Shown here: piece by piece, positions 10,659-62,295 of the stretch | How positions within the stretch are numbered: the first letter of the stretch is position 1 | How the letters are laid out: the number at the start of each line of letters is the position of its first letter | Origin: Microthyrium microscopicum | Lineage: Eukaryota | Direction: 5' to 3' | Length of the DNA stretch: 64,000 nucleotides | Assembly: GCA_010405405.1 (NCBI GenBank) | Contig: MU004237.1 | Location: forward strand, 1,437,345 to 1,501,344 | The notes under the pieces: generated by a model | Databases searched by the model: none | The model's input: only the letters and a program-made list of their open reading frames with translations | What the model was told of the DNA's origin: nothing | Made by a program: the position numbers and the translations under genes

Positions 10659-11023
10659 TTCGGGTGGTTTTGCGCGTCTCCCGGAAGTAACACCATAGTT
10701 GTACGCAGGGTGGATGTGCTTGAGGAATGAAGCTATCACGAACCTCCTGATTGGGGCTGGGATGATGTTGTAGATTTTCAAAGTCACGTGCCGAAAGGTA
10801 TACACATGTGCAATGTTGACCAATTTTTATCAAGAGCATCGAATATATCCAGATGTTATGATGAAATCTGATTAAGATTTGAAATAGACTTGACATCCTC
10901 ATCATGAGTAAATTGCTACGATGGCCATATATACAAATTTGACCGATGCGATGAGCAGATAGTCATGGATCTGAGATCATCAGCTCCTGTATACTAGTTA
11001 GTACTGGCATATTTACCTCAAGT

Positions 11024-11191
11024 CAGCTAGATTCAAGACAGCGAGATTCAAGACAGCGAGATTCAAGACAGCGAGATTCAAGACAGCGAGATTCAAGACA
11101 GCNNNNNNNNNNAGATTCAAGACAGCGAGATTCAAGACAGCGAGATTCAAGACAGCGAGATTCAAGACAGCGAGATTCAAGACAGCTAGAT
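11024..11191. repeat. 15-bp minisatellite (AGATTCAAGACAGCG)n, at least 10 copies, spanning an assembly gap (N 11103-11112)
   Basis: Perfect tandem copies visible on both sides of the N run. Confidence 0.95.
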
Positions 11192-12225
11192 TCATGCCAT
11201 CTTTCCAGGCACAAACGGATGGCCAGCACTCAATCCACCACACACCGGGATCGATTGCCCATTAACATAACTAGCCTCATCACTCGACAAAAACAAAACC
11301 ACACGCGCCACTTCATCCGCAATGCCACCGCGTCGTAGAGGATTCAATTGCCCAATCTTTCTCTCCGTCCCCCGTGTCCGGGCCATCTCATACATCGGCG
11401 CTGTCATACCGGTCTCGATGATTCCAGGGCAGATGGCATTACATCTTATACCTGTGCCCGCCAGTTGGTATGAGATAGTTTGAACCAGTGACATCACAGC
11501 TGCTTTCGATGCAGCGTAGTCTGATGCGCCCGCATTTGATCGAATGCCAGCGACGGAGGCAGTTCCTATGATGGAGCCGGTCGGATATGGTTTATTCTTC
11601 ATCATAGCCTTCGCAGCATGTTTCGCGGCCAAAAAAACACTACAACTTCGTCAGTCCCCCTCTCACATGTGCACAAAATCATACATACCCAAGCGCATTA
11701 ATTCTCATAACCTCCATAAACCCCTCCGCCGTCGTCTCCGTAAACAACTGCCCACTCGCAACACCCGCGTTCGCAAAAAACACATCCAATCGCCCATAAT
11801 CCTTCACTGCTTCTCCAACCACCTTCTCCACCGCTGCCTCGTCCGCAGCGTCAAATTGGCGAGTGTGGATGTCGACAGATGGATAGAGGGATGCTAGCTC
11901 CTTTTTGTGCGTGGCAAGGTTGTTGTCCATGAAATCGCAGACGTAGATTGCGCGGGCGCCGTTTTGTGCGTATTGGTGGACTGTGGCGCGACCAATGCCT
12001 AGGGCGGAGTTTGCGCCGGTTACGATGCAGACTTTACCGCTCATGCGACTAATTGCCAATTAGTTCGTTGCGTGAGGAGAGGATGGGAAGCACTTACGGG
12101 CCTGCTGATGGTCCCGCTATGTGCCGTATTTGGGGGATATCTTCGAACATGCCTGGTGTTGCTGGAAATCCTTCAACGAGCTCTTTACTTAGGACTGGCG
12201 GGGTGGTTTTCTTTGCTGACGACAT
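11192..12225 (-). CDS. Short-chain dehydrogenase/reductase (3-oxoacyl-ACP reductase-like)
   Basis: VTGANSALGIG, FFANAG, YAASK catalytic motif, NAICPG; 3 exons with canonical introns. Confidence 0.93.
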
Positions 12226-12697
12226 TTTGGCTTTGTATGGTATGAGGCTTCAAGAGTGTTTGAGTTTACACAACGGATATGGGTTTGTCGGATGTGATGG
12301 CGGGGATTGAGTGAGGTTGAAAATTGACAGCCGAGGCTGGAGGAGCTCGCAACTTCATCTGCTTCAAGTAAGTCGATGTCTCCAAATTTTCATTGACAAG
12401 TTTAGTCGCATTGTAGGTGAAAGTCTTCTACCAATAGCTACAACCACGTCGCGGCTTTTGAGAGCAAAGTCCAAAGTTGATGCTCCGCATTCATAAATCC
12501 TCAACCTTCTTTATTCGGCTGGAAACGATTGTTAAAGTACCTACTGGCGTGCTTAAGTTCAAACATTCGGTGAGATAGTACGATGTAGTGTTAATGAAGC
12601 TAAGACTAATCTCAAACTGACGATTGAATAGAGAGAAATCACCCGTTGATAAGGGTTCACGACAAGACCAGCCGATCGCTCATGACTCCGTTCTTAA

Positions 12698-12820
12698 ATC
12701 GACCTGTTATATATCGACCTGTTATATCGATCTGTTATATCGACCTGTTATATCGACCTGTTACATCGACCTGTTACATCGACCTGTTATGTCGACCTGT
12801 TATGTCGACCTGTCATATCG
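12698..12820. repeat. 13-bp minisatellite (ATCGACCTGTTAT)n, about 9 imperfect copies
   Basis: Visible tandem copies of ATCGACCTGTTAT with variants. Confidence 0.92.
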
Positions 12821-13558: not shown

Positions 13559-16128
13559 TCATCTTCTCCGGATCCTGATTATCACCAACGACAGAGTGAG
13601 CAAAGCAAACACTAGAAGCAAATACTGCGTCTGTGTTCTTATGACTTGCTGGGACAGTTTCTCCCTTCCCCACCTGTGAACCTTATGGTAGCTCTTGAGA
13701 GGTACAGGTTGATCGGGCAGTTCTTCCCGTCCCCACTTGTGAACCCTGTCATAGGCCTTGATAGGTACACGTATTCCTGCGTATAATTCACGGCGGTGTA
13801 GTGGAGGTCCTTCCCTAATGCTTCTTGACTTGATGTCGAAACAATCATATTCCACGGGATACGTGCGCGTGCAGAGTGGCCAGATGACTCTCGTGTGCAT
13901 GTCGCAGAAGAGGTTCTCGCGACGATTGTAGAAATCTGGGCCATGTCACATTGGATCATGGCAGCATCCGTGAACAGTGTGGTTAGGGTAAATTGTGTCG
14001 ATAAGTGTGCCATTCATTGGTTGAGTTCCGTCAGCTCTCTTGGCTAGTGGAGGCCCTTGAGGAAGCCATCGTTTCGGTTTATGTTCCCTGCTGGGATCAA
14101 GGACGTTGTTGAAAAAGCCCAATTTTTCACCTGTGTAGCCTTCTTCAATGAGATGGCGTGCAAAAGTTTTGTTGAAGCTGGCAGGGGCGAGGGGAATGTC
14201 TCTTAGATGCCAGTCTGTATGTTTGAACTGATCACTATAAAGCAGGCCTGTGCCATCGATGATCCTTTGCTCGTCTTTGTCGACAGATCCACGCGACTGA
14301 TCTTCGTATTCCAGCTTTGGTTCGAAAACTGGAACATTTCGCAGCTTGTCCATTTCAAACCACATTTGAAATCTTCCTGGAGAACAGACTAGTCTCGGGT
14401 CAATATTGAATCGGTCAATGCGTTCTTTAGTGGGCCTCATGTCTCGAATATGCATTGACATGCCTTGGAAGGGAATGCCGTCTTGACGTTGATCCTCAGC
14501 AAGCCAGACGCAGACTGGTTTGTGAGTGTATGATGGATCTTTTGAGTCGGCTGTGATGGTAACGTCGGAATATCCCCACTGTAGATTTCATCAGTATGAA
14601 GTTACAATCAGAGGCAAAACACCTGCAAAGACCATTTGCTCTTTCGGCGGTGAAGACGTTAAATACCCATTGCATTCGATGGCGCCCATATCACCAGAAT
14701 ATTGAACGGCTTTAATGGGAGCCATCGAGTGCGATGGGAGATGTGATGTTTTCTGTTCAAACAGATATTGTCAGGAGATGTGGTTTATTTGACACGGGGA
14801 TTCTTACCATGGCACCGCAGGCTCGGCCAATGTCACTATCAAAGCATGTCAACAGCTGTTTACAAGGCTCAACGGACTGGAAAAACAAATGGCGTGATCT
14901 CAACAGCTTCGTTGGCTCCCATACGCTACGATCTACTATACTCTTCAGTAGCTTTGATGGGAGCCATCATCGCTGGAGGTAGCGTGCCTCTCATTTTGCC
15001 AACCCGCGGACAATGGTTTTTTTCGGCGGATGACTTACCCTGTCCAATGGAAAACTTCATTGCTAGGCCATCTAACAGAGATGTGTTGGATGCATATGGC
15101 ATCATCGTTAGTGTCAGACTTTGTAAACTGTATATATTCTGCTTGGTTTCCAGGAAAGTGCGGCGAGTGGTGGATAGTATGATATCGTGTAGCTCCTGCA
15201 GAGATATGTCCGGTTCTGTAAGGCTTCTTGCCTTCAACGAGCCTGAAGTTTGTCAGTAGATTGTTCCGAGGAGAGCTGACGCACTTTGGGAAACACTATT
15301 TGACTTTTGGAGATGGAGTCACGAAATAACTTTGAGCCTTCGCATCTGGTGGGAACCATCGCATTCGACAAAGAACGCATACTATAGAAGCCACCAACTG
15401 TGCTGGCAGCCACCAACTTACCTGCGACCTGTATTGTCGAGAAGGTTAATCCAGGGACCACCAGATTTGTTTGTTCCATAACCATGCTGGCCGGTAACAT
15501 TCTCCTCATTGTGCTGTGCGTATATGTCGCCAGTTTGCCCAACCGTTATTCCAAGCGCAGTGGCCTCATCAACTCTTGGAGGTGCTTTCTTACCCTCAAC
15601 TACATTGGCGATTGAAAAACCTATGTTTACACCCAAGTTGACGAGGCCTATCACAGCGTTAAATGCATCCATTTTTGTGATCGGGCCCTTTTCTGCTGGA
15701 GTTCCTCTGTGAAAAGGATTGACTAAGGTGCCATTGATCCACGTATTGTTGATGATCGTGTTTACGTTGAGCCCACCCTTCACCAGCAATGGTCCGAATC
15801 TTGTTAACCAAGCTAGCCGGTCAGTCTCGTTGTAGTGCTTTTCAGGAATTTGCTGGAGGTTGCTCGGTCCAGGAGCCGAAGGAGGTACTCCAAGAATATC
15901 TAAAAGTGTACTCAAGTTGTAACGAGAACCCGGGCTGAGAGAAGAAGGGGCGAGGCTGATCAAGTATTCCTCTTCTTCTGGTTCTTCGTTGTCTATCTCC
16001 TGATTTGTTGGCAACGGGTGAGCAGTCTGAGACACGCTGCTGACACTAGGTTTCTCACCGTAGAAGAAAGAGGAGTAGATCCTGCCTGCGAGGAGAAGTA
16101 TGCAATAATGATAGCGATGGACCAACAT
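13559..16128 (-). CDS. Secreted Cys-rich fungal hypothetical protein, 4 exons (16128-15422, 15242-15039, 14835-14808, 14578-13559), with an in-frame TGA at 13946-13948
   Basis: GT-AG splicing in phase gives GGPWINLLDNTGRR..QAEYI..DDAICIQHISVRWP..WTGDIGRACGAMWGYS..PVCVWL..GMSMHIRDM..HGPDF..FCDM..WPLC..CFD. I recognise this pattern from an uncharacterised secreted ascomycete family (recall, not a database result). Hydrophobic N-terminus. Confidence 0.8.
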
Positions 16129-17745
16129 AGGAGTAGAAGACCAAGGCTCAGAAGGTGTAAATTTTCACCAAAGAGCAATGACACACTGATAGGACGGGGA
16201 ACTTAATGAGCAGTCTTATCTGATACACTGCTATTCCTAAGAATGGTTCAACTTCGAATGAATTCACGACTCCGAGGGACCCTCTCTTCAATAGACCAGG
16301 TGACGATTTCTAGTCACCCTCAATCAAAGGAGACCCTGAGGAGATGATAAGAAACTTCTTTTTAAGGACGCGTTTAAAACGGGATGATTGTCAAAGTGCT
16401 CGATTGCTGCGGCAGTCTTTCCAGGTATTGGTCGTCGAGCAAGAGTCATGAAGGGCTCTTACCACTGTGTTGATCAGCTTAACTCCAAATATCTTGAAGA
16501 AACTAGAGTAGCATGCGAAGATGAGCAGAGATGTATCCTATCGTAACTACTACGTGCTCAACCAACGGTAGAGTTGCGTGTCAGACGATGCATAGCGGAT
16601 GAGGCTGGCGGCCTGAAAGAGCAATATCTATCAACTCGGCTTGGTAGAAGCCAACGTCTCGAGCAGCCGGAAAAAATTCCACAGGTCACGATAGGTATTG
16701 GATTTGATTCTCGTCTAACAAGACTTGACCTCTGTTCGCCGTGGTCAGCTTCAATCGACGAGATATGATTCAGTCCATGTGCGCAAACTTTGGTGCATGA
16801 GGATCAAAATTTTGATTGAAAGTCTTTTAATAATACCCATACAATTTGTTTTCAATGTGTGAGTGGTCGAGAATGAACATAACATGTAAAACCGAGAAGT
16901 GGATTGTATCAAAAAACGGTCCCATGCGATTGAAAATGAGCCATCTCAGCCTCTACAACCAGAGATAATGCTCAGCTAAACACTTTCATGGTCGAAGCTA
17001 TTGATCCAATCAGTAGTCACAAACCCAAAATAGCACCGCTAGGGTTCCCAACTAAAGTATCGTATGATACATATCAAAGTCCGAAGTTGAAAAGACAACA
17101 TCATATGAGCGTACCTCCTTATACAGAATGAATCGTCGATGTCGATGAAGATCATCATTGTCCACTCTGGACACACGATATAGTGCAAGCCAGATTCCAT
17201 CTCTTGCCTAACAGACTCAAACAATTGTTTCTGACAGCAGGATACGTGAAGTGGGTCCGGTTTCCTGCACTTTCTCATGCTTCCTAACGATATGCCAACC
17301 GATAGAAGAAATGGCCGGCATGTGCCAATTAACTTCGATGGCTCTCACACAAGACTACATGGTAATGAGTGCGCTCAGCACCACAAAGGGCGTTCAGACT
17401 ACCACAGCTTATCGAATGCGCTGGCCACTTTAGCACCTTTTGTTTATCGGGGTTCGTGGGAGCCATTGGAGCTGATGGAGACACACCAGGTATTTTGTCT
17501 ATTCCTTGATATGCTTCGTTGACGATCGGTCGTCTGTTGTCACAGCCTTGCTGTAACCAGGCCTTTTTTCGCTTAAAGCTACAATAAGAGCGCCGGCTAC
17601 TATATTCAGATGAGCTGGTGACTCTAGAGGTCTTTCCACACAACAGAATACCAAATATCACGTCAACGAAGCAAAACTCGTCCTTGATCTGACCTAAAGC
17701 TTGTTTAACATGTAATTTGTTGTTCATTTCTAAAGTACAGCGCTG

Positions 17746-29099: not shown

Positions 29100-30287
29100 A
29101 TGGCTCAGATTCGCGGTACAGCTGGTTACCATCTTGGTAACCAGCATCAATTCGGTGGCCCTGGCTCATCAGAAGCAACAAACGATCCCAGTCCACTTGA
29201 TGCTATCCGTGAGCAAACCAGCAAGATCGAAGACTTTCTCGACACCATGGCCGATCCTATAAAGCCGTACGTCTACCAAACATTAATAGCGCACTGCATT
29301 ACCTCGCCCTCACCCCAGCTCTCCCCGTACCGTGTCTCTCAAGCTCGCAAGATCGCTCTCTCTTGATCCACAAAACTAACAGAAGTTCTCTCAGTTACCT
29401 ACCAGCAATTGGCCGTTTCCTCATTGTCGTAACCTTCCTCGAAGATGCCCTCCGCATCATCACACAATGGAGCGACCAACTTCTTTACCTCCACGACTAC
29501 CGCCACAGTATGAGCATCACGAATTCCCGCCCATATAGTAGCTAACGTCTCCCAGTTCCATACGGCATAACCCACATCTTTCTCATTCTAAACGTCATCG
29601 CCATGACCGCCTCTTCCGTCCTCATCATCATTCGCAAACACTCAGAATACGCCGTCGCCGGTCTCGTCGGTGTCGTCATCACCCAAGCTCTTGGCTACGG
29701 TCTCATTTTCGACCTCAACTTCTTCCTCCGCAATTTGTCAGTCGTCGGTGGCCTCCTCATGGTTTTGTCAGATTCTTGGGTACGACAGAAGTTTGCGCCA
29801 GCAGGCCTACCGCAATTGGACGAGAAGGATCGAAAGATGTATATTCAATTAGCCGGTCGTGTGCTGCTCATCTTTCTCTTCTTGGGATTCGTGATTGCAG
29901 GCGAATGGAGCATTTGGCGCGTGGTGGTGAGCTTGTTTGGCTTTGTGGCTTGTGTCATGGTTGTGGTGGGCTTCAAGGCCAAGTTTAGTGCCATAATGTT
30001 GGTGCTATTGTTGAGCATTTTCAATTTGTTGGTCAACAACTGGTGGACGGTACGTAAATCTTCAGGTATTGCAAGGGAATCATACTAACATTAATTCCCA
30101 GCTCCACGGCCACCACCCCCACCGCGATTTCGCAAAGTATGATTTCTTCCAGATTCTCTCCATCGTGTAAGTATCTTCCCTGCCCGCCCACAATTAAATA
30201 CTGACATCCCATAGTGGCGGTCTTCTCCTCCTGGTCAACATGGGCCCTGGTTCATTCAGTGTTGACGAGAAGAAGAAGGTATATTAG
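29100..30287 (+). CDS. ERV29: SURF4/Erv29 ER cargo receptor
   Basis: PYLPAIGRFLIVVTFLED, FFLRNLSVVGGLL, YDFFQ and C-terminal di-lysine DEKKKVY; 5 coding exons; probable 5'UTR intron near 28862-28927. Confidence 0.93.
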
Positions 30288-59301: not shown

Positions 59302-59537
59302 CACCCGTTTGCGAAAGTTGAATGAGCGCCTAGACACCCCCTCCTACTACTTTTCAGGAAACTCGATCAGTTTTAACGAATCATAGCTTGAATAGCCGTG
59401 AAATGGAGTATGTAGAACGCTAAGTCAATACTAACTATTTTCCAATAATCGGCTGTTCTGCGCGTGAATGGTGCAAGTCTATAAAAATTAACATGCATGG
59501 GGGAGAGTTGGCGATCATCCCTTTTCGCAAACAGGTG
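59302..59537 (+). mobile_element. MITE copy A (Tc1/mariner-type, TA-flanked, 236 bp)
   Basis: Starts TA|CACCCGTTTGCGAAA and ends TTTCGCAAACAGGTG|TA; non-coding; homologous to 62296-62530. Confidence 0.85.
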
Positions 59538-59605
59538 TAATGAGAGCTTGGGTGTAATGAGAGCTCCGGTGTAATGAGAGCTCCGGTGTAATGAGAGCTC
59601 CGGTG
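59534..59605. repeat. 17-bp tandem repeat (GGTGTAATGAGAGCTCC) x about 4
   Basis: Units start at 59534, 59551, 59568 and 59585. Confidence 0.92.
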
Positions 59606-60997: not shown

Positions 60998-61137
60998 GGG
61001 CACGATACAAACACGAGGAAGGCACGATACAAACACGAGCAAGGCACATGGCAAACACGAGGAAGGCACATGGCAAACATGAGGAAGGCACGATACAAAC
61101 ACGAGGAAGGCACAGGCAAACACATGGCAAGCACGTG
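60998..61137. repeat. 21-22 bp minisatellite (GGCACGATACAAACACGAGGAA-like), about 6 imperfect copies
   Basis: Visible tandem units alternating GGCACGATAC and GGCACATGGC variants. Confidence 0.88.
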
Positions 61138-61499
61138 GCCGGGAACTGGAAGAATCTAGTTCGTTCCTTCCATACATGCAATCTTGTGATCAAAGGCCAG
61201 AAATGGCATTTTGAGCCTAAGGCCTCTCGAATTGCGATACATTGTAGGGTTGGAAGTGCAAAACCATTGAGATTGTGTGGAATCAATTCGCGCAACCTGA
61301 CCTCTGAACTTTTTTTGTGTTGACCTAAGCGTAAAACATAAGCATCAAGAGGTTGGATGAAAGCTAAAGCTATATAATCAAACAGCAGAGCAGAGGGAAG
61401 CCGAAATGGGACAGAGAAATGGCCCAAGAAGCCTTCAAAAGGCAGAAATGCATATGTCCCTTTTGCAAAGCATGAAGTTTGTGTCAATTTGCATGGCGG

Positions 61500-61714
61500 C
61501 CAGCGGCATGGCAAAATAAATGGCGTACTCCCATCAGCTCTGATGGCGCCCAGAGGCTACGGTCTGCTATCGAGTGCTTTATTTGCCATAAAGGGCGTTT
61601 GGATTGGGAGTATTTATCAGATACGATGGGAATTAAAGCACCTTTTGGTTAGCAGCGCTGGTGGTAGCCATCAGAGTTGATGGGAGTACGCCATTTAAGT
61701 TGCCATGCCGTTGG
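61500..61714. mobile_element. Foldback/MITE-like element with about 48-bp inverted arms (61500-61547 and 61667-61714)
   Basis: CCAGCGGCATGGCAAAATAAATGGCGTACTCCCATCAGCTCTGATGGC versus the reverse complement of the right arm CCAACGGCATGGCAACTTAAATGGCGTACTCCCATCAACTCTGATGGC (4 mismatches by hand count). Exact ends and TSD not resolved. Confidence 0.7.
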
Positions 61715-62295
61715 GCGGCAGAGAACAAAATGGCGCTGTTGAGGCCGTTTTGTGAGCCGAGATTTCCCCAGCCATTCAATGTACAAAAATCGTAAAACAG
61801 CCGATGTTTTTGGAGGGCCATGATTGGATCTGAGCTAGAAGGTGGCTTTGGGGGTGGCTGGCGCACCTCAACCATGCTCTTTCATTGGTGGCCAGAAGTC
61901 ACAAAACTAACCCGGATTACGCGGGGAATGATCTAATATTGTTGTTTCGGGTGATGAAATCTTGACGGAAACCATTTTCCCCATTAAAGCTATTTAAATA
62001 TTTCGCAGCTCAATACCCTAGCGCGCGGGCAACATATAGCATACAGATTCGCTTCCTTGATCAGACGACTTTGAACATGTATGAAGTGCTTTCCGAGCTC
62101 AATGCTTTGCGTATCCAGCTCACACTCTTCAGTTGTAAGAGACAAACCTAGTTTAAGGATACTGGGTGTCTTTTCTTTATGAATTCATCCAAGAATATTT
62201 GGCAGTACACGGCATGAATGAATGCAACCGCAGAGTCTATATCCCAGTGCTTTCGCTAGCAGTACACCTCATTCATAGTCAAATCGCCTTGTATA

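Follow-up and report, generated by a model that had tools for sequence, protein, structure and literature searches.

The window, as we call the whole stretch of DNA analysed here, covers 64 kb (64,000 nucleotides, nt) of contig MU004237.1 of the fungus Microthyrium microscopicum and is densely packed with genes. On its minus strand lies a gene with three introns, two of which hold hairpins, and some 46 kb away an inverted repeat stands between genes at 61.5 kb (Table 1). An earlier note on this DNA had tied the hairpins to the distant repeat and had suggested that the introns stem from a DNA transposon with terminal inverted repeats (TIRs). We find that hairpins and inverted repeat are homologous and belong to a single family of TIR/foldback elements. 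Our preferred reading, held with slightly better than even confidence, is that a non-autonomous foldback DNA transposon, resembling a miniature inverted-repeat transposable element (MITE), gave rise to the hairpins by entering short introns already present in the gene. Here, we will describe the host gene, the element family, and the limits of its copies, and then weigh insertion into existing introns against the creation of introns by the element.

Table 1. Host gene, its parts as supported by protein homology, and the delimited copies of the foldback element (positions within the window)
Feature	Position	Strand	Description
Host gene	13946..16128	-	four exons; in-frame stop at 13946-13948; conserved fungal family of uncharacterised proteins
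Intron 1	15243..15421	-	179 nt; GTAAGT ... CTGAC-N7-CAG
Exon 2	15242-15039	-	
Intron 2	14836..15038	-	203 nt; GTAAGT ... TTGAC-N11-TAG
Micro-exon 3	14808..14835	-	28 nt; conserved GD[IV]G..C..G motif
Intron 3	14579..14807	-	229 nt; GTAAGA ... CTGAT-N10-CAG
Exon 4	from 14578	-	
e61, best-preserved copy	61501..61713	.	near-intact; intergenic, no coding capacity
e17, decayed full-length copy	17297..17507	.	collinear with e61
i2, copy in intron 2	14870..15009	.	loop cut to ~35 nt; same + orientation as e61 and e17

The host gene and its introns

The host protein has relatives in 48 clusters at E<=1e-3 (HMMER, library-wide), and the named members of its family come from Apiospora, Claviceps, Peltula and Wilcoxina. 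The deposited product is a hypothetical protein of 501 aa (P0001), in which the sequence jumps from ...CIQHIS to WGYSD. At this place, the deposited model (14808-15075, minus strand) has one intron of ~497 nt with a weak GTTAGA donor, and 23 residues conserved among homologs, belonging to the end of exon 2 and to the micro-exon, are lost. In tblastn searches, several homologs match exon 2 up to ~15032-15038 and resume at 14578, with 7-10 residues left over. When the spliced model is aligned with 13 homologs (MAFFT), the extra 23 residues fit a V.WP......W.GD[IV]G..C..G..W[YF].S block. The gene model of the earlier note, with intron 2, a 28-nt exon, and intron 3, agrees better with these 13 homologs than the deposited one. 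Splicing of introns 1-3 is supported by this protein homology; none of the joints listed for the X5 contigs (presumed to be RNA) belongs to these introns.

As a reference for regular introns, we took the 14 GT..AG introns that X5 contigs skip between 11.2 and 31 kb of the window, which measure 48-128 nt with a median of 52 nt. Each intron in the host gene exceeds this regular length several-fold (179, 203 and 229 nt), while the splice signals are canonical, with GTAAGT or GTAAGA donors, CTGAC, TTGAC or CTGAT branch points, and AG acceptors. One other long intron, the sole one among the X5 contigs, belongs to a SURF4-family gene (29267-29394; 128 nt) and is not matched by the element profile described below.

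Past the stop codon, the frame keeps the Cys-rich C-terminal block of the family (GPDF...LFCDM...PLC...CFD) to ~13733 on the minus strand. The tblastn matches of homologs run through the stop, and an X5 contig covers the site without differences; the host gene may be truncated or a pseudogene. Two tandem arrays lie on its 3′ side, one with a 13-nt unit (9.6 copies, 12694-12820) and one with a 15-nt unit (11.2 copies, 11018-11194) that adjoins a run of N at 11103.

A foldback family within introns and between genes

The arms of the hairpin in intron 2 resemble the 61.5-kb repeat to exactly the degree that had been counted by hand in the earlier note: 14870-14921 is identical to 61501-61552 at 39/52 positions, and the reverse complement of 14957-15001 to 61509-61553 at 32/45. 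If the first of these 52-mers is slid over both strands of the window, the best score outside element copies is 25-28/52, and the further high scores fall on the second arm of the 61.5-kb repeat (37, at 61662) and on a third locus (32 and 34, at 17296/17457). Gapped blastn within the window likewise joins the 61.5-kb element to intron 2 (E=3e-10; 83 nt, 73%) and to 17325-17497 (E=8e-13; 173 nt, 62%), the latter match spanning the loop.

A spaced motif, CTCCCATC-N6-GATGGC-N-CCCA, was said in the earlier note to be kept in intron 3, and it is indeed found there, with one exact match. Allowing up to three mismatches, the motif has five matches in the window against 0.04 expected (both 61.5-kb arms, both intron 3 arms and one intron 2 arm), and five are reached in none of 100 shuffles. 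The 13-mer core, at up to two mismatches, matches six times, each time within introns 1-3 or the 61.5-kb element; at up to three mismatches, it is not enriched in the window overall (26 matches against 18.6 expected, with 6 of 100 shuffles reaching 26). This last count is what could be said for a chance likeness of GC-rich palindromic motifs that lack a common origin, a reading that the 52-mer counts, the blastn E-values, and the excess of the spaced motif refute, as does the confinement of the closer core matches to element copies, and whose probability we regard as negligible. The earlier note had staked its proposal on an alignment above background and on the existence of other copies: the alignment is far above background, and a further copy, although decayed, lies at 17297-17507. 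We take it as confirmed by these sequence comparisons that the inverted repeat at 61.5 kb and the hairpins in the introns are one family by descent.

The element is non-coding and ~140-213 bp long. In the best-preserved copy, e61, the inverted repeat (61494-61552/61662-61720) has arms of 59 nt that are 86% complementary, separated by a spacer of 109 nt, and as DNA it folds at -76.3 kcal/mol (z=-12.4 against shuffles). This copy lies in a stretch of ~3.7 kb without Pfam domains, with an APS-kinase gene on one side and a small open reading frame (ORF) on the other. A protein search with the 100-aa ORF of e61 gave no match, nor did Rfam at 61300-61900, and the ORFs of the element in general had no Pfam or protein matches. 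The same domain-free stretch contains a 22-nt tandem repeat (5.2 copies, 60999-61139), ~360 nt to the left of e61, and a 17-nt tandem array is found at 59534-59605. The decayed full-length copy, e17, is found ~240 nt beyond the stop codon of an EamA-family gene; from the start of the intron-bearing host gene it is ~1.2 kb away, on the upstream side. The arms of e17 no longer fold (z=-0.2). In the intron 2 copy, i2, the arms have decayed to 32/45 pairing positions.

From these three copies, we built an nhmmer profile. It finds e17 at E=1.6e-64, a value to be read with e17 being itself a member of the profile, and in the rest of the window its only significant match is intron 3 (E=6e-4), with intron 1 non-significant (E=1.5). 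The 64 kb hold 4-5 copies, dispersed, short, and non-coding, and with an identity of 62-75% between copies, the family is old. Outside the window, the source DNA run yields at least seven more contigs with a match to 14704-14752, which is one arm of intron 3, and the summed depth of that run in this bin is 253 against ~106-108. The family is multi-copy in the genome, as these matches show. At 14717-14744, inside intron 3's right arm, breaks and overlaps occur between contigs of the source run itself; judging from these breaks, an exact word of ~28 nt would recur elsewhere in the genome. The intron 3 type may represent a younger and more abundant subfamily. Short parts of the element copies (14887-14929 and 17409-17446) also have matches among X5 contigs that stem from other places, and some copies may be transcribed, as retained introns or untranslated regions.

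Element ends and flanking direct repeats

Among the checks proposed in the earlier note was the definition of termini and target-site duplications (TSDs), and both could be found. In the three-copy alignment, the similarity of e61, e17 and i2 stops at common columns, and direct repeats of ~8 bp stand at the ends, within ±1 nt, of all three copies that can be delimited. They read GATATGCC/GATATGCT at e17 (7/8), ACAAGGCT (14862-14869)/ACAATGGT (15010-15017) at i2 (6/8, with zero slack), and TGGCGGCC/GGGCGGCA at e61 (6/8), where the flanking 8-mers can also be taken as ATGGCGGC/TGGGCGGC (6/8 with up to 2 nt of slack). At random positions of the window, a repeat of at least 6/8 occurs with P=0.0425 and one of at least 7/8 with P=0.006; the length of the TSD is uncertain by ±1-2 nt.

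Beyond the ends, the 70-nt flanks of the copies are unrelated, since five of six same-side comparisons are non-significant, and e17 shares no flank with the other copies. The sixth comparison contains CAAAGCATG, which the earlier note had reported just outside the arm both in intron 2 and near the 61.5-kb repeat. It does occur at 14840-14848 and 61466-61474; its value as a shared flank did not hold up, the similarity being borderline (P=0.017, uncorrected, in one of 15 flank comparisons). Scans for TSDs gave no candidate in intron 1 and many weak candidates in intron 3, none of them convincing. The features of a MITE are present: TIRs of 59 nt (86% in e61), a TSD of ~8 bp in 3/3 copies, several copies, and no coding sequence. 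At three of the six ends, the terminus reads CAGCG or CAACG.

Element sequence inside each intron

Intron 2 shows how element and intron relate. Its homology to e61 and e17 leaves the last 23-31 nt before each splice site uncovered, and these sites lie 21 and 26 nt outside the flanking repeats; whether the splice sites lie within the element consensus, a question raised in the earlier note, is answered in the negative for intron 2. If the element and one repeat are subtracted from the intron (203-140-8), 55 nt are left, with GTAAGT, the TTGAC branch point, and TAG. In the predicted RNA fold of the intron, the arms pair (-61 kcal/mol, z=-2.5).

The hairpin of intron 3 (14666-14689/14715-14738) is an inverted repeat of 24 nt (88%) within a diverged element copy, for which ~14605-14769 are candidate outer limits. 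Introns 2 and 3 align collinearly, the local alignment of intron 3 with i2 reaching z=8.4, and intron 3 also has a predicted RNA fold better than shuffles (z=-3.2). In intron 1, we find relic pieces at 15340-15363 and 15391-15415, including the 13-mer core with two mismatches at 15348-15360 and a piece identical to the right arm of e61 at 20/25 positions. The 3′ half of this intron (15340-15243) aligns in inverted orientation with 14864-14948 of i2 (z=6.0), while its RNA fold gives no signal (z=-0.9).

Probable insertion into existing introns

An introner survey sets out how a transposon that makes introns is to be told from one that lands in them: the copies have to be alike right up to the exon-intron boundaries, 5′ end to 5′ end and 3′ end to 3′ end, without the likeness entering the exons, and otherwise a secondary insertion of a transposable element (TE) is diagnosed (PMC12130899). 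Because the similarity of i2 to e61 and e17 misses the splice sites, intron 2 classifies as a secondary TE insertion under this rule. Dataset S1 of the same survey lists zero introner families for M. microscopicum. We favour insertion because, in intron 2, element and repeats both end before the splice sites are reached, because the remainder of 55 nt is a canonical intron, and because of the boundary rule and the zero introner families listed. The DNA/TIR origin suggested in the earlier note would, on this reading, hold for the structured parts of the introns, which derive from the element, and not for the introns themselves.

How the locus could have arisen by insertion may be pictured as follows. 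The family would be a foldback transposon with long TIRs that leaves TSDs of ~8 bp; its intergenic copy at 61.5 kb would be young and the one at 17.3 kb old. Other copies would have entered short pre-existing introns of the neighbouring gene, probably via short-range hops; a span of 2.9 kb takes in three of the four well-supported copies (P=0.022), and local hopping would explain this clustering. The intronic copies would be tolerated because of their place, downstream of the 5′ splice site but ahead of the branch point. Their arms could pair in the pre-mRNA and loop the insert out, and the looped-out insert would keep the splice signals about as near to each other as in a normal intron of ~50 nt. 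What the data show are the homology, the boundaries, the flanking repeats and, through protein homology, where the introns lie; we infer the order of events, the hopping over short distances, and the part that the fold would play in splicing.

A number of observations weigh against insertion into existing introns. The family is present in all three introns of the host gene, and no more than 28 nt separate introns 2 and 3. Under uniform random insertion, two of four copies would fall within ~250 nt of intron with P ~9e-5; with local hopping and the purging of hits in exons, our own rough estimate for the same clustering is P ~0.01-0.05. A Pfam scan of 97 ORFs of at least 110 aa in the window revealed no transposase. 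Intron 1 aligns, at its branch point and acceptor, to an internal stretch of i2, and the splice-proximal linkers show weak in-register similarity on the 5′ side between introns 2 and 3 (P=0.021) and on the 3′ side between introns 3 and 1 (P=0.021) and between introns 2 and 1 (P=0.09), the other three of six comparisons being non-significant. Arm pairing bears no sign of selection, with one of four double changes compensatory. At e61, the flanks (GGCGGC) may just as well be a continuation of the inverted repeat, and in intron 3, where the element limits are candidates, the best candidate for a flanking repeat (7/8) leaves a skeleton of 76 nt. Finally, sites 1-3 carry no intron in any of the four metagenome loci that cover them, at ~30% identity to the host protein.

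Intron creation and functional RNA as alternatives

In the strongest alternative, the introns would have arisen in the manner of introners: the element itself, or a form of it that bore the linkers, would have entered continuous coding sequence and made introns 1-3, or, as a variant, an element-bearing intron would have been copied whole to nearby sites in the same gene. Insertion into coding sequence is the supposed origin of the introner-like elements (ILEs) of other Dothideomycetes. Such an origin would account for the length of the three introns, for the stable predicted folds of introns 2 and 3, for the family being found in 3/3 introns of the gene, and for the 28-nt micro-exon between two of them. 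Introners are further recognised by high copy number, as at least four similar introns in genes of different paralogy groups; in the window, the intronic copies all lie within the one host gene. The collinearity of introns 2 and 3, the borderline linker similarities in splice-site register, and the alignment of the 3′ end of intron 1 with i2-internal sequence point the same way. Pairs of ILEs 145-626 bp apart within one gene are on record for four genes (PMC4457414).

Relatives of the host gene bear on this question as well. Of five metagenome loci found to encode relatives of the host protein, four cover the intron sites (L001, L003, L004 and L005), amounting to three distinct sequences, as L004 and L005 are the same there. 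In each of them, W.GDIG..CG..WY.S is contiguous and the site of intron 1 is likewise uninterrupted, and L001 has two introns of 52 and 55 nt elsewhere. The contiguous coding sequence would be expected if the element had made the introns; however, with relatives this distant, lineage-specific introns are expected anyway.

The ends of the similarity speak against intron creation, since they fall 23-31 nt inside intron 2 with TSD-like repeats that are themselves intronic, and where introns 2 and 3 meet their exons, we see no direct repeats. Without its insert, intron 2 would still be a full canonical intron; the linker similarities fail correction for the number of tests; and the zero introner families in the survey's listing for the species (PMC12130899, Dataset S1) tell in the same direction. 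We nevertheless leave an introner-like or whole-intron-duplication origin a minor but appreciable share of the probability, because of the clustering, the intron-less relatives, the linker similarities, and the documented paired ILEs.

Far less probable, to the point that we would be surprised by it, is that the hairpins are functional RNA genes hosted by introns, such as small nucleolar RNAs or microRNA-like precursors, and are kept for that role. The hairpins of introns 2 and 3 do fold better than shuffles, and the intron 3 hairpin has a match to MIR477 (30.6 bits, E=7e-4). However, this best match is far under the gathering threshold of 65 bits, no Rfam family reaches its threshold, and the model, of a plant family, describes a microRNA precursor, so any hairpin may score. 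Moreover, Rfam has no match at e61, non-intronic copies with flanking direct repeats exist, one copy (e17) has lost the fold, and of four double changes, one is compensatory.

Comparison with known systems

Secondary insertions of repeats or MITEs into regular spliceosomal introns look much like the present case, in that the repeat is intron-internal and does not reach the splice sites, non-intronic copies exist, and direct repeats flank the insert. Here, in contrast, every intron of one gene has been hit, two of them 28 nt apart and all at positions unshared with the available relatives. Among transposons, hAT-type MITEs and foldback elements are short and non-coding, with TIRs and a TSD of ~8 bp, and the hAT superfamily is further marked by 8-bp TSDs, a YARNG end motif, and autonomous copies with the same ends that encode a hAT transposase. 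The CA(A/G)C termini of our element come near this motif in 3/6 termini. By comparison with hAT MITEs, the arms are longer than usual (59 nt or more) and constitute almost the entire element. The best-fitting known kind is a MITE or foldback element; a hAT-like superfamily is our best guess, tentatively made from the ~8-bp TSD and the end motif. We found no published description of this foldback family in the literature on M. microscopicum introns, Dothideomycete MITEs, or introners.

The ILEs of Dothideomycetes, reportedly described by van der Burgt in 2012, belong to the same fungal class and resemble the introns of the host gene in being ~3-4 times as long as regular ones, with predicted stable hairpins and canonical splice signals. 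Like them, they occur several to a gene and decay in both sequence and length (Collemare 2013, PMC3609843; see also Collemare 2015, PMC4457414), and the Zymoseptoria introners are classed as TIR DNA/hAT-type in Dataset S2 of the survey (PMC12130899). Unlike in the ILEs, similarity that reaches the splice sites was not found here, and there are non-intronic copies without splice signals; the family is also old (62-75%), in a species listed with zero introner families.

In Hypoxylaceae, internally symmetrical sister (stw)introns have been described, which are multi-copy fungal introns in the form of long hairpins, with terminal inverted repeats of 45-55 nt, similar in arm length to our element (PMC8469720). 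Their repeats sit at the ends of the introns and lack flanking duplications, on which grounds the authors exclude DNA transposition. In contrast, the arms in our case begin 29 nt inside intron 2, and 8-bp flanking repeats are present.

Implications

Fungal ILEs are a main model for the birth of new spliceosomal introns, and the key distinction in their study is between a transposon that lands in an intron and one that makes it. The locus described here offers a compact test case for this distinction: one 64-kb stretch contains both a free copy, nearly intact, and decayed copies in introns, the element ends can be delimited, and relatives lack the intron positions. Such cases can escape genome-wide surveys, as the family is old and the deposited model fuses two introns and loses a conserved 28-nt exon.

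If the ordinary reading of insertion into existing introns is true, the locus amounts to a routine MITE family and an annotation correction. It is possible, though we think it doubtful, that a foldback transposon instead created three new introns in one Microthyrium gene and left a 28-nt micro-exon between two of them, while its free form persists at 61.5 kb. If so, introner-like intron gain would extend to the Microthyriales, a lineage scored as introner-free, and a source transposon would stand beside the introns derived from it in one fungus.

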